From: a virus
Reading direction: 5' to 3' (one strand)
Length of the DNA: 47,494 nucleotides
Virus record (IMG/VR): IMGVR_UViG_3300029868_000036
Location: 1 to 47,494 of that record
The notes beneath the pieces were generated by a model. It was not told the origin of the DNA. It saw only the letters and a list, made by a program, of their open reading frames with translations, and made no database searches. Shown here in pieces: positions 1-40,085 of this stretch. Made by a program: the position numbers and the translations under genes. Position 1 is the stretch's first letter; every line of letters starts with the position of its first letter.

Positions 1-305
1 CAAAAGAGACTCAACTCACAGCATTTAAAGATGCAAAAGTAGTCGACCTTGACACATACACAACAACAAAAGAGACTCAACTCACAGCATTTAAAGATGC
101 AAAAGTAGTGGACCTAGAAGCCTATAAGGATTTGAAAAACATAGACTTAGAAGCTTACAAAGACTTAAAAATTTCAGATTTAGAAACATATAAAAATCTA
201 AAAATTGATGATATAAATAATCAAGTAAATACCATCTATAGTGATACTTTTAAAGTAGCTAGAAGATTTAAAATGCAGAGTTTCGGAATAGGTTTAAACC
301 TATAA
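1..305 (+). CDS. C-terminal part of a wrap-around tail-fibre-like repeat protein (same ORF as 46560..47494 across the circular junction)
   Basis: Bases 1-109 equal 47386-47494. The ORF open from ATG 46560 to the window end continues in phase (codons at 3,6,...) and stops at TAA 303-305. The listed 108..305 ORF is only its tail. It contains 11-residue repeats (DLEAYKDLKNI-like). Confidence 0.6.
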   Translation, partial: KETQLTAFKDAKVVDLDTYTTTKETQLTAFKDAKVVDLEAYKDLKNIDLEAYKDLKISDLETYKNLKIDDINNQVNTIYSDTFKVARRFKMQSFGIGLNL

Positions 306-359
306 GCAGATGACCAAAAACATGTCTTTAAACTGTTCAAAAAATATAAGGAGTTACAA

Positions 360-1880
360 ATGGGTTTAAAAAGTGCAAGAGATACACTTGTTCGAAAAAT
401 TGAAGAAGTTGCAGATACAAGTACAGACCTTGAACAGTTAAGCTATGCAGGTGCGAGCTTACAGAAGTTAGTTGATATCAATTTTGATATTTTACCAGAG
501 GACACAGCTTATAATATCGGTGTAGCTGGAACTATGGGCTTTGGTGTTGCTGCCATGAAAGATGAGTTAGTTCCCGCAGGATATGTAAAGCTTACAGGTC
601 ATGCAGATGTCGCACATCCAAACTATGGTCTTATTATGGACTTAAAAGGAAGTGTGCTTGAATACATTGCTCCATTTACATACAAGATGACAGGTAATGT
701 TATAAGCATTAGTCCTATTGCAGTAACAGGAAATGTAACGCCAAGAGCATTTATTGACTCACCAAATGGTTTTCTGCATTTTAAATACATGGCAGGAAAT
801 GAGGGTGGGAAGATGGTATCTAAACAAAATTTAGATCCACTATCTACAAACTCTGCTCACAATCCTATTAGTGCTTTAGTATCAGCACCAGCAAATAACT
901 ATGCAGGATTTATAGATGCTTGTAGAGCTGATGGGTATAAGACACCTACTATTTTTGAATGGATTGCTCTGCAATTAATAGCTTTAGCTCAAAGCCAAAG
1001 TGGTGCATCGACTGCTTTGTGTGCATATAATGATGTCTTACCATACTTCCCAAAAGGAAATCTTGCTAATGCACTCAGTGATGTAAATGATACAAGTGTT
1101 ACTTTTACAGCAAGTGGTTATTCCAATGCTTCTTTAACGGGAAGTGGTTCAAATTTCGCAAAAACTACACACAATGGTCAGGACTGCGGTATAGCAGATA
1201 TGACAGGTAATATGTGGAAGATTGTTACAGGACTTACCTACCTTGCAAAAACTGGTGCTAGTGTTGCAAGTGGTGGTACTGCAATAGCTATGGTTGGTCA
1301 TGGACTTGCTGTAAACGATGTTATCTACTTCGGTGGGACTCCAGCTAGTGGTTCTACATATAACACAGCAGCTTATACAGTTACAGCAGTCACCGATGCC
1401 GATAATTTTACAGTAGGTACAGCACTTGAGAGAGCTATTTCTGCTACTGATGGTGTTTATTCATCAAGATATTTTAGAATATTAAAAACATCTGTAAGAG
1501 CAGATAGTTTAACATCTGCTAACCTACTTGATAGTGCAAACTATGATTTACTAGATATGACAGGGGTTATAGATAGCAATAGCGGAACAGTATATTTTGG
1601 AAGTGGGACAAATACAGTTTTAAACTTTTCTACTGATACAAACTCCAAAGAGTACAAGATGGCTAGTTGTGGAATTCCTACGGCTCTTGGTGTAGATGCT
1701 ACAGGTACAACAGAGTTTGGTAATGATTATATTTATAAATATATGAGACATGGTCTCGTGCCGATTGTCGGTGGGGCTTGGGCTGATTCTTCTAGGTCTG
1801 GGGTTTTCGCCCTCAGTTTGCTTTACTATTCTTCGATCTCGGGCACGGCTGTTGGTGGTTTCGCCTCTGTTTCTCTGTAA
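360..1880 (+). CDS. DGR target protein: tail fibre / receptor-binding protein with C-terminal variable (C-type-lectin-fold-like) region
   Basis: 506-aa ORF in the tail-fibre module. The last ~40 codons (VPIVGGAWADSSRSGVFALSLLYYSSISGTAVGGFASV) are the VR copy of the Asn-rich TR downstream. An RBS-like aaggag lies at 349-354. Confidence 0.85.
   Translation: MGLKSARDTLVRKIEEVADTSTDLEQLSYAGASLQKLVDINFDILPEDTAYNIGVAGTMGFGVAAMKDELVPAGYVKLTGHADVAHPNYGLIMDLKGSVLEYIAPFTYKMTGNVISISPIAVTGNVTPRAFIDSPNGFLHFKYMAGNEGGKMVSKQNLDPLSTNSAHNPISALVSAPANNYAGFIDACRADGYKTPTIFEWIALQLIALAQSQSGASTALCAYNDVLPYFPKGNLANALSDVNDTSVTFTASGYSNASLTGSGSNFAKTTHNGQDCGIADMTGNMWKIVTGLTYLAKTGASVASGGTAIAMVGHGLAVNDVIYFGGTPASGSTYNTAAYTVTAVTDADNFTVGTALERAISATDGVYSSRYFRILKTSVRADSLTSANLLDSANYDLLDMTGVIDSNSGTVYFGSGTNTVLNFSTDTNSKEYKMASCGIPTALGVDATGTTEFGNDYIYKYMRHGLVPIVGGAWADSSRSGVFALSLLYYSSISGTAVGGFASVSL
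1753..1871 (+). repeat. DGR variable repeat (VR)
   Basis: Ungapped 119-bp alignment to 2334-2452 gives 100/119 identical. Of the 19 mismatches, 17 fall where the TR has A. All 10 AAY (Asn) codons of the TR are changed in the VR. Confidence 0.9.
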
Positions 1881-1896
1881 TAGAGAGCGGTAGCGA

Positions 1897-2298
1897 ATGG
1901 TAAAGGCTTGTAAAGGAGAGGTTGTTTTGAACCGTAAGTTTGTGGAGATGATGAAGTTACTCAATATGTATCTTAATCATTTCCCTCGGTATGAGAAGTA
2001 TGCTTTATCTAATGGGATTAGAAATACTGCATATCGCGTTTACGATTTAATTACTGAGTGTCAAAAGAGGTATCACAAAAAGACCTCTTTAACGATGCTT
2101 GATATTGAGCATGAAAAACTTAGAATGCAGATAAATCTTGCTTATGAGCTTGAATATTTTGCTTTTAAGAATGGTGCTAAAAACATAAAAGTAGCTAAAC
2201 CTGAACATAGATACCTTGCTATATCGAGACTTATAGACGAAATAGGTAAGATTATTGGTGCTTGGATAAACAAGCTAAAAGAACTAAAAGAGTTTTAA
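1897..2298 (+). CDS. avd: Accessory variability determinant (Avd-like four-helix-bundle protein)
   Basis: 133-aa basic helical protein lying between VR and TR. It has the N-terminal FPRYEKYALSNGIRNTA motif typical of Avd / 23S-rRNA-IVS family proteins. The true start could be the internal MMKLL (about 1948). Confidence 0.75.
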   Translation: MVKACKGEVVLNRKFVEMMKLLNMYLNHFPRYEKYALSNGIRNTAYRVYDLITECQKRYHKKTSLTMLDIEHEKLRMQINLAYELEYFAFKNGAKNIKVAKPEHRYLAISRLIDEIGKIIGAWINKLKELKEF

Positions 2299-2333
2299 AT
2301 AACTCAATGGGCTATCACATTAACATGCTTTGT

Positions 2334-2452
2334 GTCTCGTGCCGATTGTCGGTGGGAATTGGAATAATTCTTCTAATGCTGGGGTTTTCGCCCTCAATTT
2401 GAATAACTATTCTTCGAACTCGAACACGAATGTTGGTGGTTTCGACTCTATT
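2334..2452 (+). repeat. DGR template repeat (TR), non-coding
   Basis: Adenine-rich copy of the VR with 10 AAT/AAC codons in the VR frame. It lies 36 nt after the avd stop and 89 nt before the RT start. The listed ORF 2330..2554 over it is spurious. Confidence 0.9.
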
Positions 2453-2541
2453 GTAATCCTAAAATGTCAAAAACAAGATTGGAAAAGAGGGATGTGGAGT
2501 CCAGCTAAAAGCGAAATTTTAAAGAGGGGATTTATTAAAGT

Positions 2542-3591
2542 ATGGCAAGTATGAAAGAAAAATATGGCTTAGAAATTCTAAGAACCTCGAAACGATATGG
2601 CAACTTGTATGAACTTGCTTTTACTCAAGATAACCTTTTTGTAGCATATTTAGAAGCTAGAAAAGGCAAGAGAAAAAAAGTAGGAACATATCTATTTGAA
2701 AAAAATTTAAGTCTTAACTTGGATGCACTATTTGAAGAGTTAAAAACACAAACATATACCACAAAACCATATAGAGAGTTTGAGGTGTATGAACCAAAGA
2801 GAAGAGTTATTTTAGCACCTCATTTTAGAGACCTTGTTGTGCAACATGCTATTTATAGAGTCATCTATAATATTTTTAATAGTACGTTTATAGACACAAG
2901 CTTCGCTTGTAGAAAAAATGGTGGGACACATAAGGCTAGTGCTTATACACAAAAAGAGATGTGTAAGTATGATGGAGATAAATATACATTAAAGCTTGAC
3001 ATTAAGAAGTTTTTTTACTCTATTGATAGAACTATATTAAGAGGACTATTTGAAAAAAGGATAAAAGACAAGAAGTTTATAGACTTGATGATGGTTTTTG
3101 CTGATGCAAATGGATCAAGTGTCGGCATTCCTATTGGCAACCTTTTGAGTCAGTTGTACTCTCTAGTCTATATGAATGAGGTAGACAACTTCATAAAGAG
3201 AGTTTTGAAGATAAAGAGTTATGTTAGATATGTAGATGACTTTGTACTGGTAGGGCTAACTTTAGATGAAGCAAAAATAGCACAAAAACAGTGTGAAGAG
3301 TTTGTTGATAAAAAGCTAAAAATGCAACTAAGTCACTGGCATATACTAAAGATAAAAAGAGGCTTGAACTTTGTGGGGTATCGTACATGGAGAAGTGTAA
3401 AATTTGTTCGAAAACATACATTGTACAAGTTTAGAAAATCAGTTATAGATAAAAATATTAGTTCGATAGTATCTATTATCGGTCATGCAAAAGGCACAAA
3501 TACTCTTAGCTACTTTAGAAAAATAGTTTTAAGATATATGCCTGATTTTATTTTAATACCAAAGAGGAGTTTGTTATGTTTAAGTATGTAA
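2542..3591 (+). CDS. DGR-type reverse transcriptase
   Basis: 349 aa. The catalytic YVDD is at 3229-3240. IGNLLSQ (3133-3153) matches the (I/L)GxxxSQ signature that distinguishes DGR RTs from group II intron and retron RTs. The gene is immediately downstream of the TR. Confidence 0.9.
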   Translation: MASMKEKYGLEILRTSKRYGNLYELAFTQDNLFVAYLEARKGKRKKVGTYLFEKNLSLNLDALFEELKTQTYTTKPYREFEVYEPKRRVILAPHFRDLVVQHAIYRVIYNIFNSTFIDTSFACRKNGGTHKASAYTQKEMCKYDGDKYTLKLDIKKFFYSIDRTILRGLFEKRIKDKKFIDLMMVFADANGSSVGIPIGNLLSQLYSLVYMNEVDNFIKRVLKIKSYVRYVDDFVLVGLTLDEAKIAQKQCEEFVDKKLKMQLSHWHILKIKRGLNFVGYRTWRSVKFVRKHTLYKFRKSVIDKNISSIVSIIGHAKGTNTLSYFRKIVLRYMPDFILIPKRSLLCLSM

Positions 3592-3977
3592 AGTTTACAA
3601 AAGTTGAGGCTGAGTTTTCAGTTTTAGAGTTCAAGGGTGGTGTTGTGAGTGTTACAGTTAATGTTTTTGATACAGGTGTTGTTAGTTTAGAGTCTACGGT
3701 TGAGGCTGATATTGATGCACTTATAGCACAACAGCCAACAGAGATAAGTGCAACCGTAATTTTAAAAGATGAGTTTAAAGCACTAGTTACTAACTCTGCA
3801 CAGCTTAAGCGTATCCGTGAAGTTGTAAAAACAGAAATAGCAAAAAAGTATGATGTTGCTGATGAAGTTGCACAGAGTAAGAGAGATCCAGCAGATGCTA
3901 AAAGAGTTGCTTATGAGGCTTATGTACAAGAGTGTTTATCTTTAGGATTTGGTCTCAAAGCTGAAATAGGGTACTAA
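3576..3977 (+). CDS. Hypothetical acidic protein, start overlaps the RT stop by 16 nt
   Basis: 133-aa ORF with aggag RBS at 3564-3568, co-oriented with its neighbours. No recognisable motif. Confidence 0.5.
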   Translation: MFKYVKFTKVEAEFSVLEFKGGVVSVTVNVFDTGVVSLESTVEADIDALIAQQPTEISATVILKDEFKALVTNSAQLKRIREVVKTEIAKKYDVADEVAQSKRDPADAKRVAYEAYVQECLSLGFGLKAEIGY

Positions 3978-3978
3978 G

Positions 3979-4242
3979 ATGAGCAAAGTACTCAAGTGGA
4001 TGCTGATGCCACAAGATAAAGCAAATCATGCTTTTTACGGTTTGCTGACATATATTGTAGTAGGTATGGTTAATCCACACTTAGCGATATGTGTAGTGTT
4101 TGTTCAATCACTAGGTAAAGAAGTTTATGACTATTATAATCCTAAAACGAACACAGCAGACTTTATGGATTTTGTTTATACATTTGCACCTTCTATGGTT
4201 TTATACGCTTTAGAGTATGGAATCATAGTTACTAAGGTTTAG
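3979..4242 (+). CDS. Small membrane protein (holin candidate)
   Basis: 87 aa with 2-3 hydrophobic segments (YGLLTYIVVGMV, AICVVFVQSLG, FAPSMVLYALEYGIIV). It lies upstream of the endolysin. Confidence 0.45.
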   Translation: MSKVLKWMLMPQDKANHAFYGLLTYIVVGMVNPHLAICVVFVQSLGKEVYDYYNPKTNTADFMDFVYTFAPSMVLYALEYGIIVTKV

Positions 4243-4244
4243 AG

Positions 4245-4673
4245 ATGTTTGATTTAATAAAAGGTATATTTAGTGTCAAAAGTATAGATAGCGTTGTAGA
4301 TGCTGTTATAGCTACGGGTGATAAACTTGTATATACCAATGAAGAAAAAGCAGAGATGAAGCAAAAGGTCGGAGAACTACATATAAAAATGCTTGGTGCT
4401 TACGAACCTTTTAAAATAGCTCAAAGGTTCATTACATTTAGTTTTATGTTTTTGTACTCTTTAGCTTTTTTAATAGGTCTTGTGATAGTAGTATTTAATT
4501 CTATACATAAGTATATAGAACTAAGCAATGGTGTAGAAGTGAAAAATATAATTGAAATATCTTTAGAACCGTTGTTTAATCTTGTACTTACTTTTAATGT
4601 AGGCATAATCATAGGAACGATAGTAGTTTTTTATTTTGGTGGTGGAACTATAAACTCGATTAGAGGAAAGTGA
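4245..4673 (+). CDS. Membrane protein (holin/lysis-associated candidate)
   Basis: 142 aa with two long hydrophobic segments (FITFSFMFLYSLAFLIGLVIVVF, LVLTFNVGIIIGTIVVFYFGG). Confidence 0.45.
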   Translation: MFDLIKGIFSVKSIDSVVDAVIATGDKLVYTNEEKAEMKQKVGELHIKMLGAYEPFKIAQRFITFSFMFLYSLAFLIGLVIVVFNSIHKYIELSNGVEVKNIIEISLEPLFNLVLTFNVGIIIGTIVVFYFGGGTINSIRGK

Positions 4674-4713
4674 TATGAAAGTCATATTAGTTAGTAAGTA
4701 CAAGGAGAGCTAA

Positions 4714-5133
4714 ATGTTAGAGAGTTGGATGATAAGTGCGGGAAGTGGACTGTTAGCTGTTGCTTTTGGTTATGGAATAGTTAGGAATAGACTAGACTCA
4801 CTAGAAAAAGGTGCAAAGTCACACTTAGAGACTGACACTGTTTATCATCATGATATGGACAGGAAGTTGGATGCTCAGTTTAGAAGAATAGATGACTGCC
4901 ATGATAGAGCTACAAGACTCGAATCAAAATTTGGAACTCTTCTTGATGAAAAAACAGCAGATAGTAAATTTGTTTCAAAACATGAACTTGCTCTACACTT
5001 AAAAAATATAGACAGCGAACTGGCACACATGACTAAAAATAGCGATGTGATGCTGGGAAAGCTAGAAGAGCTGACAAAAGCATTTTCTACTTACATGTTA
5101 AGAGAACTAAACGATAACAAGGATAAAGAATGA
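4714..5133 (+). CDS. N-terminally membrane-anchored coiled-coil protein (lysis accessory / spanin-like candidate)
   Basis: 139 aa with an N-terminal TM segment (ISAGSGLLAVAFGYGIV) and a helical remainder. Its stop overlaps the endolysin start (ATGA). Confidence 0.4.
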   Translation: MLESWMISAGSGLLAVAFGYGIVRNRLDSLEKGAKSHLETDTVYHHDMDRKLDAQFRRIDDCHDRATRLESKFGTLLDEKTADSKFVSKHELALHLKNIDSELAHMTKNSDVMLGKLEELTKAFSTYMLRELNDNKDKE

Positions 5134-5528
5134 AAGAGTTAATAGAAAACGTTAAAGAGTCTGAGGGGTTTCGTGGGATGCCTTATGCTGATACACTAGG
5201 TTTTGCAACTATAGGTTATGGAACAAAACTACCACTAAGTAAAGAAGAGTCACAAGTAATCTTAGAGATGAGACTAAAAGAGAAAATCAAAGAGCTTGAG
5301 AAAAAAGAGCCTTTTGTTAATAAACTTACATTAAATGCACAAAGTGTAATTTCAGAAATGAGTTATCAGATGGGTGTTAATGGTGTACTTAAATTTAAGA
5401 AAATGTGGAAGCATTTAAAGAATTTTGATTATGTAAGTGCAAGTGAAGAGATGCTCGATAGTAAATGGGCGATACAGACTCCAAATAGAGCTAAAAAATT
5501 ATCTAACCTGATGAAGAGAAGTATATAA
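5130..5528 (+). CDS. Endolysin, T4-lysozyme-like (GH24) muramidase
   Basis: The motif ESEGFRGMPYADTLGFATIGYGT has the E-x8-D-x5-T catalytic spacing of T4 lysozyme. Confidence 0.85.
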   Translation: MKELIENVKESEGFRGMPYADTLGFATIGYGTKLPLSKEESQVILEMRLKEKIKELEKKEPFVNKLTLNAQSVISEMSYQMGVNGVLKFKKMWKHLKNFDYVSASEEMLDSKWAIQTPNRAKKLSNLMKRSI

Positions 5529-5534
5529 AATATT

Positions 5535-5756
5535 ATGAACAATAACATAGCAGCATCTTCTCTCGTTAAGATACGTGAACTGCAAGGTCTTATAGATATT
5601 CTTAATAATACTACTATCGGAACTATAACACTAGATATATCAGATATTCAAGCGAGATTAACTTCTATAGAATCAGACATCATAAACTTACAAAACAATA
5701 AAACAAGTTTAAAACAAGTCAAGCAATACATAAGGCTCAAAGAGTCTTTAATATAA
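5535..5756 (+). CDS. Hypothetical small coiled-coil protein
   Basis: 73-aa ORF co-oriented in the structural/lysis block. Confidence 0.4.
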   Translation: MNNNIAASSLVKIRELQGLIDILNNTTIGTITLDISDIQARLTSIESDIINLQNNKTSLKQVKQYIRLKESLI

Positions 5757-5765
5757 GGAAAAAAC

Positions 5766-6647
5766 ATGGCAATAGATACAACTGAACTTAAAAGTTTATA
5801 TGATGAATTTTTAACAAAAGGGATGAGTGAACTTAAAAAGTTACAAGAAGCTACTCAAATGGAGGATGAGAGTTTAGCAACTGCTGCATCAAACATAATC
5901 ATAGGAGCAATGAGCCAGAGTACTCAATCACTCCAAGTCATAAAAGGTTTTTTACTTTTAGATAAGCAGATAGTTACAGAGGCAAACAAAGCACTAGACA
6001 TAGCAAGTGCTACAGCCGTAAGGGATGCACAATCAACTCAGGACCTACTTAACAAAGCGAGTGAGAGAATTAGAATAGACAAAAGTGCTACACTCGTTGG
6101 AAGACAAGCCGATAGTGAAACAAACAAAGCACTAGACATAGCAAGTGCAACAGCTGCTAGAGATGCACAATTAGCAAAAGATTTACTTATTAAAGATGAA
6201 CAGTACATAGCTGCTAAACTCACTACAGGAAATACATACTTTGACTATACATATTATGTAAGTACTGATCAAGAAGTTATAGATGGACTTGCTTCGGTTG
6301 GAGATGTAAAAACGAAAACACTTGCTACTACTGGTGTTGCAAAGTCTACTCAAGAACTTACACAAGAGAAGTTAAATGCAGATGTAAATTTCGTAAAAGA
6401 GCAAGAAAAGCAGTTAGGATACTCAGTAATATATAACAACAGAATAAAAGCGATGCAAGACTATAGTGATACATTAGGGAACTTAGGCGTTGGTGGTTTT
6501 GTCATTACTACAGATATGTGGAAGATATATAAAAATATGCTTGAAAAAATTTATATAAATTCAGGTTCTTCTCCTGTGGATTATAGTCCTGTACTTAATG
6601 CAGATGGTACTGAGATAGCTTTAGCTGAGACTGTAAAGGCAACATAA
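5766..6647 (+). CDS. Hypothetical structural protein with internal 46-aa duplication
   Basis: 293 aa. NKALDIASATA(V/A)RDAQ occurs twice (nt 5983 and 6121, offset 138 bp). Confidence 0.5.
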   Translation: MAIDTTELKSLYDEFLTKGMSELKKLQEATQMEDESLATAASNIIIGAMSQSTQSLQVIKGFLLLDKQIVTEANKALDIASATAVRDAQSTQDLLNKASERIRIDKSATLVGRQADSETNKALDIASATAARDAQLAKDLLIKDEQYIAAKLTTGNTYFDYTYYVSTDQEVIDGLASVGDVKTKTLATTGVAKSTQELTQEKLNADVNFVKEQEKQLGYSVIYNNRIKAMQDYSDTLGNLGVGGFVITTDMWKIYKNMLEKIYINSGSSPVDYSPVLNADGTEIALAETVKAT

Positions 6648-7799
6648 ATGTCTTCTGTAGTATATGATGGAACTGGTGGTGGAACAACTGGTGGTGGAAC
6701 AACTGGTGGAAGTGCAGGACAAACTGGAGACTTTAGTAATCTTAATGTTGATTCTAATAAGTTTAAGTACTTAAGTTCTGAAGATATTAAAAACAATAGT
6801 ATACAAAAAAGGTTATCAACTTTTACAAATACCGTAGCACCAATAACAGTTACTCTACCTGATGAGACTTATATTGGTAATGCTGAGGATATAATAAAAG
6901 CATATGGAACGAATCTCAATAATGTTGAAAATCCTTTTAAGCCATATATAACAGGATATACAGAATCCATAAGAACTGCTACTACTAATGATGGGTATGA
7001 GTTTACATATACAAAATATACTCCAACTTATGAGTACTCTGATGCTTACTATCAATTTGAAAAAGCTTTACAAGATGCTAAAGAAGAGATAAGTAAAAAT
7101 GATAACAAATCTAAGAGTGAAGATGATAAAAAAACTAAAACAGAGTCTGACTACTGGGAATTAGAGTTTGAGTTTATATTATCTTCTGCTCCTGATGAAC
7201 TACCACTCTATGGGCTACAAAGAAACTATGAGCTTATACCTAGTGCTTCTGTAGTTAGTAGTAGTATTGATGGGAGCATATATGACTGGTTTGCTGGTGG
7301 TGTAAACTATGATGCCCCTCGTGCTGGTGGCACTTTGTTTAATGAGACTGGAGACTTAAATACAGTAAGATTTTTAGGACTACAAGACAAAAATTACAAT
7401 AAAATACTACAAAATAGACTCACATCTCCAGCAGAACTTTACAGAATGTTAAATATTACAGCAGGGAACCGTGCCCAAAGTGAAGATAGCATCTTTGCAA
7501 AACTAGCTCAATCTCAAAGGGCTAATGCCCCTGAAGGTGCTATAACAGTTGAGGAGTATGAAAGAGGAAAGGCTGGATTAAAGATTACTCCAACTTATAC
7601 GAAATCAGTAGACCAAGATGCACTAGACCTGTCTAATATAAGAGAAGGAGAAAATAATAATCTAGGTGATTTTTTCCTTGATGTTGTTGATGTGATAGGA
7701 GATGATGAGTTTACATTATCTGTAAAAGATGTAGCAGACAATGCTGGAAGTTCAATATCAGACGGATTGAAAGGAATTGGTAACTTTTTAGGATTTTAA
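6648..7799 (+). CDS. Hypothetical structural (tail-associated?) protein with Gly-rich N-terminus
   Basis: 383 aa. The ATG overlaps the upstream stop (TAAATG). A 15-bp tandem repeat at 6671-6711 encodes TGGGT units. Confidence 0.5.
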   Translation: MSSVVYDGTGGGTTGGGTTGGSAGQTGDFSNLNVDSNKFKYLSSEDIKNNSIQKRLSTFTNTVAPITVTLPDETYIGNAEDIIKAYGTNLNNVENPFKPYITGYTESIRTATTNDGYEFTYTKYTPTYEYSDAYYQFEKALQDAKEEISKNDNKSKSEDDKKTKTESDYWELEFEFILSSAPDELPLYGLQRNYELIPSASVVSSSIDGSIYDWFAGGVNYDAPRAGGTLFNETGDLNTVRFLGLQDKNYNKILQNRLTSPAELYRMLNITAGNRAQSEDSIFAKLAQSQRANAPEGAITVEEYERGKAGLKITPTYTKSVDQDALDLSNIREGENNNLGDFFLDVVDVIGDDEFTLSVKDVADNAGSSISDGLKGIGNFLGF

Positions 7800-7800
7800 A

Positions 7801-7833
7801 AATTTAAAACTATCAAATATATACCCCACTTAA
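7801..7833 (+). promoter_or_regulatory. Conserved intergenic motif copy 1 (AATTTAAAACTATCAAATATATACCCCACTTAA), putative promoter/activator site
   Basis: 33 bp identical to 45949-45981. The core ACCCCACTTAA also occurs at 14702 and, inverted, at 35621. A TATAAA box lies 29 nt downstream and the start codon 55 nt downstream. Confidence 0.5.
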
Positions 7834-7887
7834 TCTTTTTTTTATTACTACAATACTCCTATATAAATTATATTTAAAGGACACGAG

Positions 7888-8640
7888 ATGGGTAATGCAG
7901 AAAAAGGATTAGAGGCAGTGGATATTGATGCTCTTGAGAGTACTGTTTTTGGTGGTGAAAAAAAAGAAGAGACTCCAAAAGAAGAAGAAGTTAAAGAATC
8001 TAGTGAAAAAAAGATAGAAGAGACACCAAAAGAACCTCTTACTAAAACAACTCTTGTTACAGATGAGCAGTTAAGTATCAACGAAGAGATAGTAAAGATA
8101 GATGTGCAGATACAACAGCTTGAAGCTGAGAGTGTTGATGTTTCTACATTTTATGATAACCTCGATACACACCTTAGTGATGCAGAGCAGGCTTTGGAGT
8201 TTGAGGACAAGCCTAAGTACATGAAGCTTGTAAATGATAAACTCAAAGAGTTTGAGAAGTCAGGTTCTAAAGTTGATGAGATACAGGCTCTAAAAGATGA
8301 AAAAGAGAACAAACAACTCATCTATGAAAGACAGAGTGCTATAGTAGAAGTCAGTGCAAAATATCCTGAGTATGACCATGAAAAAGTGACTGCATACTTT
8401 ACAAACGACCTCTCTAAAGCACAACAAGACAAAATCCTAAATGATTCAGAATCTTATGCAGATGTTTTTCTTAAGACTTATGAGAAGTATGTAAACATTA
8501 ACCCAAAAAACATTAAAAAATCTACAACACCAAACATCCCAAATGTAAATGACTTAAGAAAAGAGACTCCAAGTAACACTGATGTCTCTACTGGAACTCT
8601 TAGTGATGATAAGTTACTGCAAGAAGCTTTAGGCTTGTAA
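7888..8640 (+). CDS. Putative scaffolding protein
   Basis: 250-aa highly acidic, K/E-rich helical protein lying upstream of the capsid gene, separated from it by one small ORF. Confidence 0.5.
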   Translation: MGNAEKGLEAVDIDALESTVFGGEKKEETPKEEEVKESSEKKIEETPKEPLTKTTLVTDEQLSINEEIVKIDVQIQQLEAESVDVSTFYDNLDTHLSDAEQALEFEDKPKYMKLVNDKLKEFEKSGSKVDEIQALKDEKENKQLIYERQSAIVEVSAKYPEYDHEKVTAYFTNDLSKAQQDKILNDSESYADVFLKTYEKYVNINPKNIKKSTTPNIPNVNDLRKETPSNTDVSTGTLSDDKLLQEALGL

Positions 8641-14762: not shown

Positions 14763-17700
14763 TTGAAAAAGCTAGATACATTTAACGACAATGAATTTCA
14801 ATCCCTCGACTTAAAAGAAAAACAGACTATAGCTACTAACTATTTTGATACTGAGATAGCTGATAATGAGTTCACTGCCCTTGATACATCTACACAAACA
14901 AGCATCAGAGATAATTTTATAAATGCACAAATTGATTTTGATGTGAGTGATACTGTTGATAAAGTAGTCGACTTTGTAAACCCTCCAAAAAACTACATAC
15001 AAGATGATACTGTAAGTGATCCGTCAATTCACAATCCAACTGCCCCAAATATTGATGGGAGTATACCTACTATAAAGCAAAAACCATTATCAATAGAGAC
15101 TCCAGATACTTCTTTTAATCAAGACAGCACTAGTACTATGGATATAGCTACATTTGAAGACAACATCAAACCACAAGAAGATTATATTAACCCTGAGTCT
15201 GGAGATTTTGAACTAGCTAAGAGAGTTGTAAATAGAACTAATGAGCTAACTGCAAATGCAATACAAGGTACTTACAATATCTTAGGAAACATTAAAAGCC
15301 CTATAGAGTATCTTGGAATATCTACTGATGCTATGGATGCTCAGAGCAAAAAAAGGAAAGAGTGGTTCAAAGATGCTAGTGATAAACTAAATGACTTTGT
15401 TTATGAGCAAAACAAGTTTAAACTCAACAAAAAAGATAAACCAACTCACTCGTGGGAAGAGGTAAAAAAAGGTTTTAATACAGGTGGAGTGTTTGATATT
15501 GATGCTTGGCAAGAGCTTGGAAACTATGTGGGAAGTGAGGGAGTTGCTAGTAGTGTTGATATGGCAGAGATGGTAGCTACCCTACCACTGTACTATGCTT
15601 CAAGACTTCAAGAGAGTGCTGAGAAGAGAGCAAAAAATCAAAATAGAAAAGAGCCTAATGCTACTGACTACCTTATATCTGCACCAACTACAATAGGAAG
15701 TATTTTGTTGGATAGGTTCGGTCTTAAAGCTATGACTAGTGATGTTGTCCAGAGTGTTGGTAAAAAAGCACTTGATGGTAAACTTACAGAAGTTGCCAAA
15801 GAGATAGGCTCAAAGATGAAAGATGGTTTTATTAAAGAGGGTGTTACTGAGGGGGTACAAAATCCTTTAGAGATGTTTGGAGAAGAAGTAAGTACGAAGA
15901 AAGGTCTTAGCAGTGTTGAGCAGTATGTAGATAATTCTTTAGCTGGTGTGGTTGCTGGTGCTGGTATGGGAGGTACTCTTAGTGGTGCTACTGCAACTGG
16001 TAGTATGGCACTCAATGAGTACTCTGCAAAAAAACGAGAGACTCAAAGAGAAGAGTATATTTTAGATACTTACAAGAGAGATGTTCTTGGTAATGGTCTT
16101 GTTGCTACTGTGGATGATAATGGATATATAGAGTTTAAACAAAGCCTTGAGGTAAAAGTAAAAACTATTCAAGATGAGTTTACTAACTTTGTTATAAACA
16201 ATCCTGAAGTAGAAGTACCTGTAGAAGCAGTAGAGAATATAAATATGCAAGAAGTCATAGTCGAAGATGCTAAAAAGCAAGGACTCAATGTTTTAAACGA
16301 AGATGGACTTAATGCTATTGATATAGGTTTTAAAGAGCTTGAAGCAGAGATAGGAAGTACAGAAGAGATAGCTTTAGAACCTAAAGGTGTAGAGGCAGAA
16401 CCGACACAAGTTATTGAGCCTACTGCTACCAAAATAGAAACAGCACCAAAAAATGCTAAAAATCTTTATGAAGATGATAGTCCCGCACTTCAAGCTGATA
16501 ATATTGGCACTTATGAGAGTGGAAAACAAGTTGAGTATACCACTTCAGATGGTAAAAGCAGTATAGTGACAGTTGCACCTAGTGATAATCAATACAATTA
16601 TGATAGAAAAAAGGTAGCAGTAATAAATGCTGATGGTGTAGAGTTTGCAGTAAGTCCAAGTACTCTTAGTATAGTTTCTTCGGCACCATCAATAGAAGAG
16701 TCACAAGCTAATGCGAGAGGGAAGAAGAAACCTACTCCTAGTGCAATAGATGCAAAGCTCGCACTCAATGAAAAGCTTTATGGATATAGTGAAGATGCTT
16801 TAGCACAAGCAAATAAAAAACTTTTTGATGCAGACAAGAGCGAAGAGGCTCGACTCAAAAAACTTAGTACCAGTGACATAGCAGAAGAAGAGAGAGCTTA
16901 CTACGAAAACAAGAACACACCTGCTGAGACTCAAAGAGCTTATGACTTTTTAAGTACTAATACTAAAAAAGTTCAGAGCAAACAGGGTTCACTTACTGGA
17001 CTAGAACCAACAGGACAAAATGCTCTTTTTGATACACAAGCAAGTGAGGAGTATATTACTCCATCATGGGCAAAAGAGATAGTGAGTGATACTACAAAAT
17101 ATAGTGATATAATTACAGCACTTACAGATGCAAATAATGGTACATATACGGAGTTGTCAGATAGAGCGATGAATGCTTTACATAGTGCAGGAGACCCACA
17201 TCTTGTAAAAGAGATAATTAGGTTTGATGAACTTGATGGGAGATGGGACTTAAATGAGATAGAGATACAAGAGCAAAAAGCTCTTTATGATTTACTAGAG
17301 AATAACTTAAAAGGAGTAGAAAATGGCACAATCCCAAGAAGAACAAGCGACACTACAGAGACTCAAGGAGCGAGAAGTGAGACGGGAGTTTCAGAAAGTA
17401 AAACCAAAGATAATGGAGATGTACAAGAGACTACAAGAGGAGGGATACTCCAAGGAGGAATCCAAGAAGATGGTAGTACAGAAGTACCCTCAAGCAAGCA
17501 AGATGAAATAACTACAGATGTATCTATAAATGATACAAACTACAAGATATATGATGATGGAAGTGTTCTTGAAATAAAAAAAGATGGCAAACTGACAGAT
17601 TTTAAACTTGATAAACAAAAAGAAGATAGTATTAGACAGGGTGCATCTTGGACTGGTTCTACTCCTGAGTATGAGTATAGTAATCTTTCTAAAGTTTATC

Positions 17701-20700
17701 TCGTATCTAAACTATCTAAGGCTAGTTACTATGGTAGCGAGCAGAAGTACAAAAACTTTATAGACAAACTAGAGAGTGGAGACTTACCAAAAAATGAAGC
17801 TACTACAATAGCTTTAAACGAAATGGCTACCGCACTAGATGTTAAAGCAAAACAACTCAATCAAACAAGGGAGGTATACAAAAATGAAAGTGAACTTAGA
17901 AAATATGAAGGGCTGGATAAAGATACAATCAAAAAGTATGAAGATGGAACTCAAAGAAGAAAAGATAGCACAGCTAGCAGAGGAAGCGATGCAGACTTAC
18001 AAGAGACAGCTAAGTCTGACAAAGGACAAACAAGAGTCACAAGAGACAGCGATGCTAGTGACAATAGACAAACTCCAAAAGATATAATATTTGATAGTGC
18101 TAAGGTCTACAGCACTAAAGGTGTTACTGATGAGATACCAAGCAGGTTAATCTCTAAGCAGATTCAAAAAGATGTAGCAAGGTATGTAAAACAACTAGCT
18201 GATAGACTAGGATATGAGTTTGCTCTGAATGCTAAGGGTAAAAAACTTTCATATAATGGAGTAAGTGATAACATTGCAGAAGCAGGAGGAAATACTACTT
18301 TTAAATTATTTAAACCAAAGAGTGACATAGGGATATATGTCTCTTTAAACTATGACTTAGATTACAAGAGTGACTCCAATAATGATGCCTATACTCTTAG
18401 TGATGGATTTGTTGGTGGGCATCTTTTTAGGACCACTTCAAAGAGTGGTGTTGATGGTAATAATCAGTTCATACCTACACATAAACTTGACAGTAAAGAG
18501 TTTATAGATGATATAATATATGAAGTTGAAAATAGAATTAAAAGAGAGGAAACAAAAAATGCAAGCGAAAATAAAAGCAGTACAACAACTGACAGAACAA
18601 GTGATACAGCTGGAGTACCAACTGCAAAACAAAAAACACCTGAATCCAAAAGCGATAAAGGAAGTGACAAGTCAGTACCAAACAGCGATAAACGACCTGA
18701 CAGACTTAGTGATGATAGAAGCAATAGAAATGAAGTACCCACAAAAGATGAAAGAGTGGACAGACTTCCGACCACTAGCGAAGATAAACTCAATGAGCAA
18801 CAAACAACTAATGCAGACACAGTACTACCAAAACCTAATGAACGACTCACTCCTACAAAGAACTACAGCCTAGTAGGTAAAGAATCAGTAGAACTAACTA
18901 AAGGGCAGAGAAAAAAGTTTAATGCTTCTGCCCTTGACATCATCAAAAAACCTTTAGAAGAGATAACTGAGGCAGATAGAGAGATACTTAGACACTATAC
19001 TGGAGAGGGTGGGCTTGATGCAGTTAATGAAAACTCTATCAATCAACACTATACAAACTATGAAACAGTAGATGCTATGTACTCCGCTTTAAAAAGTACT
19101 GGTATCACTATGGACAAGGTACTAGAGCCAGCAGTTGGAAGTGGTAACTTTGTAGGCTTTAATCCTGATGCCTCATGGGATGTTGTGGATATAGACACTA
19201 CAAATATAGAAGTGACTAAAAGGTTATACCCTCAAATAAAAAACTTTTATGATGAAACTTATGAAACATTCGCTGGTAAAAACTACGACCTAATCATCTC
19301 TAATGTTCCTTTTGCAAGTGAGCAGTTGCTTATGAGAGAACATGCCATGACTATTAAGCCAGCGTTTAAAGCAATTCACAACTTTTACTTTGCTCATTCA
19401 ATAGACAAGGTAAAAGATAATGGTGTTGTCGCGTTTATGACAAGTACTGGTACTATGGATGGGACTACTACGGCTAGAAGTTTGAGAAAGTATCTTATGG
19501 ATAGAGGCGACTTAATAGGGGCTTTTAGACTACCTGAGAAGAGTCAAGCAAAAAATTCTCATACAGACACTATGATAGATATAATCTTCATACAAAAAAG
19601 ACCTAGTGGTGTAGAGTCAAGACAAAATGACATAAACAATCTCTTTATCAATGTTGGCTCTAGAGAGGGATTTGCTATGAATGAGTACTTCATAGCTAAC
19701 CCTGAGTTTCTTTTAGGGGATGAAGTTCTTATAGATAAAGATAAAACTAAGATGGGTAAAGAGGGTTGGATAGTTCGAGGCGAGAGTAATCTAGAAAAAA
19801 TCAAACTCAATTATGAGCCATATAAAAAACTTAAAAAGTCTAAAGAAGAAAAGAGCAATTTTGTAGACTTAGATGAAGCTAGAGTCTATGCTAAAAATAA
19901 TGCCCTTGTTATGAAAGTTGTTCAAGACACAAAGGTGTTCTCTGAAATTACAAGTGATAGTTTTACTCTCTTTGACAAAGTAGTGACTTTTAGGGACTCT
20001 GAGCAGATAGTAATGTTTGGAACTAAACTCAAAGGAAACAATACAAATAAGGCTTTGCACTTAAACAGAATCATGACCTTAACAGAAGATGCGGTAAATC
20101 AAGAAAGTAAAACACTCTTAGAAAATGCACTTAGTGAGATAGAGTCCTATAAAGAGATATATGAGAAGTCTCCACATAATGACCTTGGACTTAAAAAGTT
20201 TATGAAAGCTAATCGTGCAGATGTAAAACTCAAAGAGTTTATGTCTTACTTTGACAAAGATTTTAACCCTGCTGCTATTTATGGAGAAAAGACACGTTTT
20301 AAAAATAGTGGAGATATAAAGATAGACTCATCTAGCCCTCTTATGGATAGAGCACTCTTTTACTCAAACTTTGATAGCATCATAGATACTTCTAAATCGT
20401 ATGAGTTTTTAAACTCAAATGATATTAAGCAGCTAAAGAGCGAAAGTCTTTTTGTACAAAGTGGTGAGAATGAAATTCAACTTGGATTTATGTACTATGC
20501 TGGTAATGTTTATAAAAAGCTAGACAACTTAGAAAATCTTAATGCTAGTGGTAATATTTCAAGTGCTGAGTATAAGGCTCAATATACAAACCTTAAAGGT
20601 ATTATCCCCAAAGCGATTCCCTACAAGAGTATAAAAGTTAAGGGCGGAGAGTCTTGGATACCGAGTGTTGTAAAAGATAAACTTCTTGCAGTGCAAAAGG

Positions 20701-23700
20701 GAGAACTTAAAGTTAATGATAGTGTTTTTAATGGGAATGCTTCTCATGCTGAACTTTATAACAGATACTTAAATAAAACAGCCCTTGCACCAAAGCTCAA
20801 AGATGAGAGTGATTCTGAAAATATCCAAAGAACTATGGATGCGGAAGAGATTTTAAATGTTACTCTTGTTCCTAAAGTCATGCAATACATAGAAAGTGTT
20901 GGACTTTCTGAAATACTTACAGATGAGTACAATAGATTTTCAAACTTCTATGTAAGACCTGAAATGACTGGTGTACTCTTAAGAGATTTACCTAAGTCTT
21001 TTCGTGGTAAACCTTTTAAAATGCAAGGGCATCAAGCCGAGGGTGCTGAAAAAATAGTCTTTAATAAAAAAGGTGTTTTAGCTTTTGCCCCCGGCGGAGG
21101 AAAAACAATCACAGCAGTTGTAGCAGTTAAAAACCTTTTGGATCAGAGTGTAATGAAAAAACCTCTTTTTGTTGTTCCTGTAAATACCATAGCACAATGG
21201 GAAGAAACTGTTAAAGAATTGTATCCTGATGCTAGTGTTTACGAGTTTCCAAAAGTGAAGAGTGGAAAGAATAAAGGTAATGCTAAAGAGTGGACACAAC
21301 TCTCTCGTGAAGAGAAAGAGCAGATGGCATTTGACCTTGCTAATAATAGATATGACTTTACTATCATTGGCGATACAATGTTTCAAAAGTTTGGTCTGCC
21401 TAGTGATGTGCTCAGTGAGTATGTTGATGACCTTGTAGCTCAGATGATAAAAGAAGAGAGTGCTACAGATGATGCAAGTAAAAAAGATAAAAAAGAGATA
21501 GTATCTGCGGAGCAAAAAAGAAAAGCTCTTAAAGTAGGTCTGAGACAAGCTTATGGTGGAGAGGTTGAGTTTGACTTTGCAAAACTTGGCTTTGATGGAC
21601 TTATAGCAGATGAAGTGCAGTACTATAAAAACATAGGTATGCAAGGTAAAGATGTTAAAGGTGGACTTGGGGCAACTATAGCTATCAAGTACTCCGATAA
21701 AGCTGGAAAGAGTCTGACTACTAAAGATATTAAAGATGGTGCAGAGCCTTACTCTGCTACTCTTGGTTCTATGAGAAGTTATGACTTTAGATTTAAAAGT
21801 AAATATGTATCTCAAAACAACAATGGTAACAATGTAATACTCCTCACAGGGACACCAACACCAAACAAACCTCTTGAACTATATACACTCCTGCAACACC
21901 TAGATGAGAATATCCTTTTAGAGTACGGCATAGAAGCTTCTAGTGATTTTGTAGATACTTTTTATGACATTGAAAATTATGAGACTACAGATAGTATTGG
22001 TAAGATAGTAAAAAGAGAAGGTCTCGGTAGTATGAAAAACTTGGAGTGGTTAGGTAAGATACTTGATAGATATGTAGACTATAAAGGTTTTGAGTCTATG
22101 CCTGACTTACCACGACCTAAGCAGATAGAAGTAGAACACTATATGAAACTCTCAAAAGCTGGGGAGGTAATCTTTGGGGATGTGCAAGCTCGACTTATTC
22201 AAGCTATAGAAGATGGTAAACTTTTAAAATCTGGTGCAATAACTGCTGATAGTATAGAGATAGCACTTGTTCCTATGGGTGCAGGTCGAAGTGCATCTAT
22301 AGACTTGAGACTCTACGATATAGGCACTAAAGGAAAGTCTGAACTTACACATGATGAACTCTCAGAGCTTATTGTTAATGATGAAGCTACGATAGAAAAC
22401 AACAAGATATTAAAAACAGTAGACCTTGTTAAAAATCAATATAAAGAGAACCCTGATAGCGGACAGATAATATTTTTAGATAGATTAAAAGTAAAAAATC
22501 CTGATGGTACTACAACTTCTACACACCAAGAGATACGAGAGCAAGTTTTAGCTACTGGTCTTTTTGATGAAACAGAGGTTGTGTTTGTTAATGGTGGTGA
22601 GTTTGTAAACCATAACACTGGTAAAGTCTCAAAGGGTTCTATTAAACCTGACATGTTAAACAAAATCATGGATATGTATAATGAAGGAAAGATAAAAGTC
22701 ATTATAGGCAATACATCTAAGCTTGGTGTTGGAGTAGACCTAAACAGAAAAACTACTGACATATATCAGTTAGATATTCCTTTTCGCCCTGATGAAATAG
22801 AGCAGAGGAATAACCGTGGTGTAAGACAAGGTAATGAAAATGCTTCTGTACGAACACATAAGTTCTTCCAACTTGGAACCTTTGATAAAAGAAGTTATGA
22901 CATTGTTATTGCTAAGAGAGGGTTTAACGACATATATGGTTTTAGTGATACATCTGATATTGTATATAATGATGGTGTTTCTAAGATAGACAACAAGTCT
23001 ATGACTGACCCATATCAAGCTATAATAGATTTAGAGAGTGATCCATTTGTGAGAGAGAAACTTAGAAAACAGAGAGTTATAGATAATGCTGTAGTGGACG
23101 CTAACAATCTTAAAAATATAGTGACAAAACTTGAAGCTGATATTAGAATTAAGCAGGGTTCTATTGTAAACTATGAAAACGGAATAAAAGGTGTAGAGTC
23201 TAACTTGCAAGAGAAGAACTACCCTGAGTATAAAGCTGTTAAAGATGTAGCAGAGAAAAAAGCTAAACTAGAGAAGTATATCTCAGATAATCAAGCTCGA
23301 AAAGTAAAATATGAAAACACTATTCAAGAGATAAGAGATGATATAAAAACTATTGAGAGTAAGCTTGATGGGAGAAGAGAGATGCAAGCTACACAGCTTG
23401 CAGATACTAAGTTTATCACTGATGAGTATACAAAAGATGGTGTGAATGTAGATATAGCTCTCATAAAAGCTGCATACACAGAGCAACAGATACTTGAGAG
23501 TGAAGAGAATGTAAGCGATAGTGGCTCGGATAGTTATATGCAAAACAAGATGAACCATTCTATTAATAACAATATGACTCAAAAAGAGAAAAAAAATCAA
23601 GAAGAAGCAGATGCTTATGCTCGTGCTAATGGTTTTGATGAAGCTGGAGCGAACTATATACCTACTTACTCTTCTTCAAATATGCCGACTCGTTCTAAAG

Positions 23701-27926: not shown

Positions 27927-29012
27927 ATGGCAATTGATAGAAGAGATTATTCGATTAAACTAGAATCTGGATTATGGTCCAATAAAAAGCACACTATATT
28001 TTTATATAGATTTACTTATGAGAAAAAAACATATAGCGGTCTGATAGATTTAACAGATAAAATCAGTTGGAACAAAAAAGATAAAATATCTACTGCTCGT
28101 GCTGAACTTATAAAAATCAAGAATGATAAAAAAGATTCAGTACTTAGTGACAAAGTTACTCTTGATGAGTTTATGTCTAGCTTTTTTAAATTAAGACCTG
28201 ATACAAACAATACTAAAACTAGAAAAAGTCATTATGATAGATATGTAAGTCCGATTTGTGGGATGAAGAGAGTTGTGGACATACGACAACTACATATAAA
28301 ACAGAGCATAAAGAGTCAAGAAGATTTAGGTCTTGCTCCTCGAACTGTTAAGCAGACTCTTGAAGCACTCTCCCCTGCTTTTAAAAGTGCTATTGCAAAT
28401 AGGCTTATCTCTTACAACCCTCTTGATGGCATAGTTATTAAACTACCTAAAACAAAGAAAATAGTTAGTGAGGCTGGTGTAGAACTTACAAAAATATATA
28501 AAGCTATATATGAAGAGTTTGGAGATGATCCTTTTTATCTTTCTCTTTTTCTGTTTGCCCTTCAAGGTAGAAGAAGAGGAGAGATACTTACTCTTAAGTG
28601 GGAAGATGTCAGTATAGATAACTCTTACTACATTTTGAGAAACACTAAGAATAATGAAGAGCAGAAGATATTTTTACCTAATGTTATCAAAGACAATTTA
28701 AAAGAGATACCTCGCGTTAGTGAGTGGGTTTTTACTTCTCGTAGAACTGGTTCGCATCTCGTGGATATTAGAAAGATTACTAATAAGCTTAAGGCTAGGC
28801 TTCAAGATGATAAATTCGGCATACACTACTTAAGAAATGTAATAGTAAGTGCTATGGCTGAACAAGGCTTAGAGAGTATGCACCTTAGTGGTGCTTTAGG
28901 GCATAACGACCCTAACACTATCAAGAAGTATCTTACTATGAACTACTTGAAGTCTAGTGAGTTGGCTAGTGGGGTCATTGATGGGATAGTTTTAAACTCT
29001 CCTTTAAAATGA
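27927..29012 (+). CDS. int: Tyrosine integrase
   Basis: 361 aa. Catalytic residues are recognisable: GRRRGEILTLKWEDV (Arg), HYLRN (His-x-x-Arg), GHNDPNTIKKYL (His...Tyr). The gene is adjacent to attP. Confidence 0.85.
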   Translation: MAIDRRDYSIKLESGLWSNKKHTIFLYRFTYEKKTYSGLIDLTDKISWNKKDKISTARAELIKIKNDKKDSVLSDKVTLDEFMSSFFKLRPDTNNTKTRKSHYDRYVSPICGMKRVVDIRQLHIKQSIKSQEDLGLAPRTVKQTLEALSPAFKSAIANRLISYNPLDGIVIKLPKTKKIVSEAGVELTKIYKAIYEEFGDDPFYLSLFLFALQGRRRGEILTLKWEDVSIDNSYYILRNTKNNEEQKIFLPNVIKDNLKEIPRVSEWVFTSRRTGSHLVDIRKITNKLKARLQDDKFGIHYLRNVIVSAMAEQGLESMHLSGALGHNDPNTIKKYLTMNYLKSSELASGVIDGIVLNSPLK

Positions 29013-39650: not shown

Positions 39651-39874
39651 TTGATGGTGGTGTGGTGGTGCTTGTTTGTGGTGGTACTTACTTGTGGGTT
39701 GTGGTGGTGCTCAAAAAGTGTTTATCTCCTCTGAACTCCGTTGGGGGGGGTAATTCCCCAAGCCTGACTCTGTCTGAACTATATATGAGGTATTTGCCCT
39801 ATGAATATTTTAAACTAGATTTAGTTTCCCCTAAAAGTGAAACCAAAAAGACAGTGTGATACTCGTATAAATCA

Positions 39875-39901: not shown

Positions 39902-40020
39902 TTTTTCAGGTTAAAATATCCATCTTGAAAATTTTGCGAATTTTCATACAAATAGAGTACTTTTTTTTACTTTTAAAAATGCTAGTATCTCTTGAAAGTA
40001 CCTTGACAACGAGCTTTGAA

Positions 40021-40085
40021 GTACTAGACACAAATGTAGTCTAGCTAGACACAATCGTGGTCGAGTACTAAACACAATTGTGGTC
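40021..40085 (+). promoter_or_regulatory. Three tandem operator-like repeats (consensus TA(G/A)ACACAAT-GTGGTC) downstream of the repressor gene
   Basis: The TAGACACAA/TAAACACAA cores are at 40025, 40046 and 40069 (spacing 21 and 23 bp). The third contains the palindrome CACAATTGTG. TTGACA is at 40003-40008 and TATAAT at 40088-40093. Confidence 0.5.

Follow-up and report, generated by a model that had tools for sequence, protein, structure and literature searches.

A very probably complete BPP-1-type diversity-generating retroelement in the genome of an uncultured temperate phage

Introduction

Diversity-generating retroelements (DGRs) have been counted in the tens of thousands by public surveys (bioRxiv 10.1101/2023.10.23.563531). 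In the DGR of phage BPP-1, the target gene mtd with its variable repeat (VR) is followed by the gene avd, the template repeat (TR), a spacer and the gene brt for the reverse transcriptase (RT), the mismatches between the two repeats are adenine-specific, and about 1e13 variants of the target can be reached. Another described system is the DGR of Thermus aquaticus, whose variable protein TaqVP has a solved structure (PDB 5vf4). Here we analyse the locus at positions 360-3591 of a viral DNA of 47,494 nucleotides (IMG/VR record IMGVR_UViG_3300029868_000036), the whole of which we call the window, and conclude that it is very probably a complete DGR of the BPP-1 type, with target gene and VR, avd, TR, spacer RNA and RT in the same order. 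All coordinates are those of the window, and features lie on the + strand unless marked otherwise. An earlier note, made from the sequence alone, had already proposed the mtd-avd-TR-brt architecture for this locus; that proposal has held, since the RT, the Avd protein, the adenine bias and the fold of the target each stood up to an independent test.

The likeness to BPP-1 extends to the details of the RT and of the RNA around the TR and, in part, to the DNA behind the VR, and the differences concern mainly the target, which is not a homologue of Mtd, the placing of two RNA elements and the shape of one hairpin. Our literature search for DGRs in Campylobacterota, the group to which the host seems to belong, found no described DGR from that group.

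The variable and template repeats

The VR (1753-1871) covers codons 465-504 of the 506-codon target gene (360-1880), and the TR lies further downstream at 2334-2452. The two align over 119 nt without gaps and with 19 mismatches, a recount that agrees exactly with the earlier note, and the pair was also recovered independently by a repeat-finding program (family D1). When the mismatches are tabulated by the base present in the TR, 17 fall on its 25 adenines (A>G nine times, A>C five, A>T three) and only 2 on its 94 other positions (one-sided Fisher test, p = 9.7e-13). All ten AAT or AAC codons of the TR are altered in the VR (codons 473, 475, 476, 479, 486, 488, 489, 493, 495 and 497), where they encode, in this order, A, A, D, R, S, L, Y, I, G and A, precisely the residues that the note had listed. 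The same bias is seen throughout the family to which this locus belongs, with 540 of 563 VR/TR mismatches over 40 loci standing at TR adenines.

The part of the VR which appears to be mutagenised runs from about 1764 to 1850 (codons 469-497), and the same codons are variable in the clusters of sister proteins. Once the two 3'-most mismatches, treated below with the repeat boundary, are set aside, 15 of the 23 adenines in this part are changed. These 23 transferred adenines stand at first (12) or second (11) codon positions and never at the third, to be compared with A at 154 of 464 third positions in the remainder of the target gene. Through them 13 codons are open to rewriting, no stop codon can be reached, and 3.7e13 different proteins are possible, a diversity of about 1e13 as in BPP-1. 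A search of both strands of the genome, with the whole TR and with thirds of it as query, found no second VR.

The reverse transcriptase and Avd

The RT gene (2542-3591, 349 aa) starts 89 nt after the TR and encodes the motifs YVDD at residues 230-233 and IGNLLSQ at residues 198-204, the latter called DGR-type in the earlier note. Profile and structure-database comparisons point the same way: the protein matches the bRT chain of the BPP-1 cryo-EM structure (PDB 8ub7) with 192 bits (E 1.4e-55), at 36% identity over 89% of its length, and matches retron-type and group II intron RTs with at most 74 bits. The paper describing the BPP-1 structure names the catalytic residues D138, D215 and D216 and, besides these, K29, F66, R74, I76, I181, G182 and Q187 (bioRxiv 10.1101/2023.10.23.563531). 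All ten, active-site and template-contacting residues included, are kept here, as D153, D232 and D233 and as K43, F80, R88, I90, I198, G199 and Q204. The RT further matches PHROG 1423 (331 bits) and Pfam RVT_1, and in a comparison with 50,697 phage records the highest-scoring proteins come from phages whose RTs are DGR-type, namely Pseudomonas phage Bise (48.6% identity), a Helicobacter ganmani prophage (43.7%) and BPP-1, BIP-1 and BMP-1 (35.8%). On match scores and motifs, as distinct from a formal phylogeny, we place it with the DGR RTs.

The 133-aa protein encoded between the two repeats (1897-2298), described earlier as a helical Avd-like protein, matches Pfam bAvd with 65.7 bits, above the cut-off of 40, and PHROG 3206, 'Avd protein of DGR', with E 3e-21; its comparison with solved structures gave no sequence match. 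By these family matches it is Avd, the accessory variability determinant.

One may ask whether the RT could instead be of the retron, group II intron or defence type, with the 119-nt repeat an unrelated duplication. It is true that the best named NCBIfam match is the group II intron RT/maturase model, that PADLOC lists DRT-type models, and that no DGR-RT model appears among the matches of either collection. The group II model, however, reaches 111 bits against a cut-off of 300 and stays below the match to bRT, the retron St85 model reaches 48 against 235, the Drt models are far under their cut-offs, and the call that PADLOC makes is for a generic RT only. Neither an intron RNA nor a retron msr/msd is present, and Rfam returned no match, whether for the whole window at the gathering level or for positions 1840-2620 at E<=1. 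Together with the adenine-specific repeat, the presence of Avd and the natural series of alleles at adenine sites in sister phages, these sub-cut-off matches effectively refute such a reading, whose probability we consider negligible.

The two closest RTs of the phage collection belong to the DGRs of phage Bise and of the Helicobacter ganmani prophage. In the latter (BK070120.1, 9702-13308; L096) all the genes are labelled 'hypothetical protein', and the DGR there is unannotated. It shows the same order as the window, with a 570-aa target, a small ORF and a 325-aa RT, and has its own pair of 113-nt repeats, 91% identical; its target is related to that of the window over aa 56-291 but is 33% identical and only in the N-terminal half.

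A further ORF of 133 aa (orf133, 3576-3977), without any family match, overlaps the end of the RT gene by 16 nt. In relatives from Campylobacterota phages it is found syntenic, directly after the RT, and it is kept even in two loci where the RT is truncated (L028 and L038). It could be a gene of the lysis module or a clade-specific accessory gene of the DGR.

RNA elements around the template repeat

The RNA elements were searched for with the structure of the BPP-1 ribonucleoprotein (RNP) as a guide (bioRxiv 10.1101/2023.10.23.563531) and by comparing about 30 non-identical relatives of the locus. RNAalifold found almost no structure in a plain MAFFT alignment of the spacer; helices emerged only after the upstream strand had been joined to the spacer, which mimics the TR-deleted RNA used for cryo-EM. 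The helix between template and primer was scored by anchor-based counting with a strand-swap control, as MAFFT had put two clades in different registers. Each RNA element of BPP-1 has a counterpart here, to which we assign a role by analogy: a template:primer duplex, a stem-loop at the place of the one that binds Avd, a cPRT-Stop duplex followed by a short stem-loop and adenosines, and a stem-loop at the place of the one that binds the RT.

The template:primer duplex would be formed by the template strand TCTATTGTAATC (2447-2458), which shares its first base with an invariant GACT (2444-2447), and by the primer strand GATTGGAAAAGA (2477-2488), which shares its last base with an invariant AGGG (2488-2491). 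Anchored on the pair U2447:A2488, it has 7-11 of its 12 positions paired in every locus, with sequences that differ between clades. By analogy with Sp A56 of BPP-1, the adenosine that primes synthesis may be A2488, and the first base to be copied C2446. The same analogy would make A2445 the second templated base, yet this base is never transferred to any VR. Between the two strands lies the small stem-loop TGT-CAAAA-ACA (2465-2475), in the position of the Avd-binding stem-loop of BPP-1, with compensatory changes at 4 of its 4 pairs across relatives.

Directly after AGGG starts the duplex resembling cPRT-Stop, in which the spacer strand ATGTGGAGTCC-A (2492-2503) pairs with the upstream strand T-GGGCTATCACAT (2308-2320) over 11-12 bp, with one bulged base in the clade of the window. 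The upstream strand stands here in the spacer between avd and TR, whereas that of BPP-1 is inside avd, as is also the case in the GC-rich relatives of the window. There follow a 3-bp stem-loop, GCT-AAA-AGC (2504-2512), and a nearly invariant GAAA (2513-2516); the BPP-1 analogue of the two together is Sp 71-81, and the GAAA is a candidate for the adenosines engaged in A-minor contacts. Both the duplex and the short stem-loop were found de novo by RNAalifold.

Scored together, the helices have 82% of their cells paired, and their covariation is 0.46, compared with 0.146 for shuffled alignments (reached in 0 of 500) and at most 0.125 when the partners are slid along each other. Strands taken from the same locus form 10.6 of 11 and 9.1 of 12 pairs; combining strands from different loci lowers these values to 8.1 and 7.0.

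The last element is a long interrupted stem-loop (2524-2588) with conserved internal motifs, UU..AGUA and GAAAnUC, and compensatory changes at 7 of 7 RNAalifold pairs. It occupies the position of the RT-binding element, which is non-coding in BPP-1, but here holds the start codon and the first 15 codons of the RT gene, and residue 2 of bRT aligns with residue 16 of the RT. The apparent length of the non-coding spacer, 89 nt compared with 140 nt in BPP-1, results from this position of the RT start. An RT bound to its own message in this way could repress or gate its translation, or make the assembly of the RNP obligatorily co-translational, in cis; we hold this to be a speculative idea and on the whole an unlikely one. 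If it were true, the overlap would be a built-in feedback that keeps down the frequency at which the receptor-binding protein is mutated.

A scan for sigma-70 promoters gave 8 sites where 15.3 are expected by chance, and we therefore propose no start for the transcript. No tRNA gene was found in the window.

DNA elements at the target site

The 3' boundary of the VR (1863-1880) resembles the initiation of mutagenic homing (IMH) site. Beyond a common G(C/A)CTCT the two repeats diverge, the VR reading GCC TCT GTT and the TR GAC TCT ATT, and this stretch encodes the ...ASVSL tail up to the stop codon. In each of the 29 loci compared the VR has GCC where the TR has GAC, and no target cluster lacks the protein tail GGFASVSL. 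Because of this constancy we read the two 3'-most mismatches of the repeat pair, 1864 A>C and 1869 A>G, as fixed boundary differences of the IMH/IMH* type and not as products of mutagenesis.

In BPP-1, homing requires a hairpin downstream of the VR with a sequence-specific loop of 4 nt, and the DGRs of phages have in common a GC-rich stem of 7-10 bp, a GRNA loop and a distance of 4-34 bp (Guo et al., PMC3240598). At 1885-1896 the window has a candidate for such a hairpin, GA-GC-(GGTA)-GC-GA, with a GRNA-type tetraloop, which abuts the start codon of avd. The motif GA-(G/A)C-G(A/G)TA-G(C/T)-GA is found in nearly every locus, 22-26 nt (32 in one) past the GCC of the VR, and both its loop consensus and its distance fit the published rules. 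The two pairs that close the loop can form in every sequence (100%) and covary (GC in 20, AU in 9), and in the GC-rich relatives a further stem of 5-7 bp surrounds it. We also considered that the conserved GAGCGRTAGCGA motif might be merely the ribosome-binding site or start region of avd, and rejected this, the distance to the avd start being variable among loci.

Natural variation and activity

The closest relatives of the locus at hand are those of metagenomic sister phages (L009-L015, L017, L020-L023 and L097), which are other species-level phages with the same synteny from the terminase to the lysis genes, RTs 68-81% and targets 70-79% identical to those of the window, and the same variable codons. 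One of them, with a target 75% identical, has been sampled repeatedly: its 7 assemblies, compared over 3300 nt that begin at the target start and reach into the RT, vary at 23 columns, 21 of them in the VR, and 20 of these 21 face TR adenines. The assemblies carry four VR alleles, and their TR is identical in 7 of 7. At the protein level, four 90% clusters of target proteins contain members which are otherwise identical, or differ by one residue, and which differ at 3-14 of their last 45 residues, at or beside the codons that are AAY in the TR of the window; clusters 3, 5 and 8 repeat the pattern of variation at adenine sites. The contig of one sister phage (L010, ENA ERZ23497142 scaffold_44, 96,538 nt) is almost exactly twice a genome of 48,271 nt; it may be a dimeric assembly, which could hold two VR alleles from one sample.

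A second line of evidence comes from the non-adenine sites at which the TRs of two phages differ. When each VR is compared with its own TR, agreement is complete with relatives L023 (7/7), L009 (11/11) and L017 (25/25), and the nine comparisons together comprise 190 such sites, at 189 of which the VR of the window agrees with its own TR. That the VR follows the lineage-specific changes of its own TR indicates that transfer from TR to VR continued after these phages had diverged.

For the phage of the window itself, several observations weigh against the reading of a typical and working element. Several sister phages have multiple VR alleles but a single one is on record here: the exact target protein is alone in its 90% cluster, a contig of 3.6 kb, assembled from a different JGI sample, matches positions 1-2046 of the window at 100% identity, VR included, and a search of IMG/VR with the exact pattern of the VR flanks found no match and hence no further allele of this phage. 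The two non-adenine mismatches, which are adjacent (VR 1796-1797, TR 2377-2378) and lie beside an A>G change, turn TG of the TR into GT and give R479 (AGG) and S480, outside the reach of adenine-only mutagenesis; the other VRs seen in the family all have a constant A480. The stem of the target hairpin consists of 2 Watson-Crick pairs and 2 tandem G.A pairs and folds weakly, unlike the longer GC-rich stems described for BPP-1 and other phages. The NCBIfam model DivGenRetAVD scores the Avd protein at 72.9 bits, just under its cut-off of 80. Finally, the profile search identified no tail gene next to the target.

The single allele in two independent assemblies, the two non-adenine substitutions and the weak hairpin stem could all be explained by a recent silencing, in which the parts of the DGR would still be recognisable but homing would be lost and the VR frozen. 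Decay does occur in the family, as two relatives (L028, 5571-5926, and L038, 5359-5793) have only fragments of Avd and/or RT beside an intact target gene and are apparently decayed DGRs. In the window, however, the ORFs of RT, Avd and target are intact with all catalytic residues kept, all the RNA elements are intact, the VR equals the TR at 92 of 94 non-adenine sites and follows its own TR at 7 of 7 sites when compared with the closest relative, and the stop-free AAY design of the TR is retained. We consequently regard silencing as improbable. The DGR is real and probably active, its activity in this particular phage being inferred since one VR allele is on record.

The earlier note had gone further and stated that the phage diversifies its receptor-binding protein. 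Of this statement the diversification is borne out by the natural series of VR alleles over an invariant TR in sister phages; the receptor role is weaker, and for this phage the claim has to be held against its one allele.

The target protein

In the target protein (506 aa), helices at the N-terminus are followed by a central domain, a beta-barrel is inserted at about aa 300-360, and the variable tip forms the C-terminus. It was modelled with AlphaFold2 on an alignment of 48 sequences (pLDDT 83.5, pTM 0.84). The top Foldseek match of the model in the PDB is TaqVP (5vf4; E 5e-11, probability 1.0, TM 0.43/0.56), itself the variable protein of a DGR, and variants of Mtd and formylglycine-generating enzyme (FGE) come lower among the matches, Mtd being only a weak one. 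A weak sequence match to 5vf4 places the VR segment opposite the C-terminal segment of TaqVP, including a GIAD..GN.WE motif, and the VR takes the equivalent place on the model and on TaqVP. Thus the proposal that the VR is displayed on a fold of the C-type-lectin/FGE type, which structure prediction was to check, is supported by the predicted model. The two proteins differ in that their sequence identity is 14-17% and that the one of the window is phage-encoded and has the extra N-terminal helical part and the inserted barrel.

What this lectin-like tip is mounted on is less firmly fixed. The earlier note had called the target a tail-fibre protein; the assignment as a target with a C-terminal VR is sound, and 'tail fibre' is weaker than it was stated, resting on gene neighbourhood and on the annotation of structural neighbours. 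The structural neighbours retrieved from BFVD, CP220 among them, carry for the most part the annotation tail (collar) fibre, and they include the fibre of the DGR-bearing crAss-like phage cr55_1. Endosialidases and tailspikes have beta-barrels similar to the inserted one, for which there is also a weak match to Pfam End_beta_barrel, and the central domain is common to proteins of Campylobacter phages.

In cellular genomes, many DGRs act on proteins other than phage tail proteins. The target could likewise be some other lectin-like protein of the virion or of the cell surface, with other ligands or with a role in the lysogen, while the DGR itself would be real. In favour of this, no profile match assigns a tail function to the target or to the genes beside it, and what follows just downstream is not a set of tail genes but the RT, orf133, holin-like genes and an endolysin. 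What speaks for the tail is, besides the fibre annotations, the tailspike-like barrel and the central domain shared with Campylobacter phages, the place of the gene in a late operon between terminase and lysis genes, directly after a gene whose repeats suggest a fibre shaft. We therefore judge a non-tail target rather unlikely, and prefer the view that the protein is likely a tail fibre and most probably, as we infer, a virion protein which binds the host receptor.

Genome context and host

Contig L008 spans the junction between the two ends of the window, which have 109 identical nt in common; the window is thus taken as a complete genome of about 47.4 kb, circularly permuted or circular. It codes for terminase, portal, major head protein, endolysin, integrase, a CI-like repressor, ParA/ParB, primase and helicase. 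In the surroundings of the DGR the order is terminase, a 170-aa ORF and a 354-aa protein with 22-aa tandem repeats upstream of the target, and RT, orf133, holin-like genes and endolysin downstream of it. The junction of the ends (46560-47494 plus 1-305) lies inside the gene for this repeat protein, made of 66-nt (22-aa) units, which has 354 aa in L008 and stands directly upstream of the target. The protein is likely a coiled coil or fibre shaft, and its number of repeats may be an assembly artefact.

The integrase gene, a shorter second integrase-like ORF, the ParA/ParB genes and the gene for a CI/LexA-like repressor are found within 27927-29012, 34109-35570 (- strand), 35652-36299 (- strand) and 40172-40846 (- strand). 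The phage is temperate, and it might also be kept as a plasmid prophage besides being integrated. Beside the repressor gene, two intergenic tandem repeats (39661-39697, 2.3 copies of 16 nt; 40020-40085, 3 copies of 23 nt) could be operators or iterons.

Just behind the portal gene, with one 314-aa ORF in between, lies a single ORF of 4061 aa (14763-26948) that accounts for 26% of the genome. It matches LPD38 (a large polyvalent protein domain), SNF2, ResIII and Helicase_C in Pfam, and families of DNA methyltransferase, DarB-like antirestriction and helicase in PHROGs. It probably is a polyvalent anti-restriction protein, packaged in the virion and injected.

A nucleotide search with positions 1-8000 of the window against the 50,697 phage records gave no match. 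The contigs that carry the closest genomic relatives of the target have been binned as Sulfurimonas, Sulfurovum and other Campylobacterota, and the G+C content of the window, about 35%, is in keeping with such a host. Binning and composition are together consistent with a sulfur-oxidising, Sulfurimonas-like member of the Campylobacterota, a low-GC host different from that of BPP-1.

Proposed mechanism and significance

By comparison with BPP-1, the cycle of this DGR may proceed as follows. An RNA from about 2308 to about 2588 would be bound by the RT-Avd complex. The spacer strand 2477-2488 would pair with the 3' end of the TR at 2447-2458, and A2488 would prime the synthesis of cDNA in cis at C2446/A2445. 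The RT would then copy the TR leftwards, misincorporating opposite the 23 adenines, until synthesis halts at the duplex between 2308-2320 and 2492-2503. The cDNA would finally replace the VR over about 1764-1862, guided by the VR-specific 3' boundary and by the GRNA-loop hairpin at 1885-1896. In this way 13 codons, at the lectin-like C-terminal tip of a virion protein which most probably binds the host receptor, could give up to 3.7e13 variants.

As a DGR, the element is well preserved but ordinary: it differs from that of BPP-1 in detail and leaves the understanding of DGRs unchanged. For specialists of these elements, the family offers about 30 diverged relatives, low-GC as well as GC-rich, in which every RNA element that the cryo-EM structure of BPP-1 shows has a covarying counterpart and from which the priming adenosine (A2488) and the first template base can be predicted precisely, a variant of the target-site hairpin with a GRTA loop and tandem G.A pairs, and, in a repeatedly sampled sister phage, a natural allele series of four VRs over an invariant TR. 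For the uncultured temperate Campylobacterota phage itself, the gain is one of annotation, as a hypervariable, probably adsorption-related protein and the retroelement that goes with it are now identified, and with them the phage could track the surface changes of its Sulfurimonas-like host.

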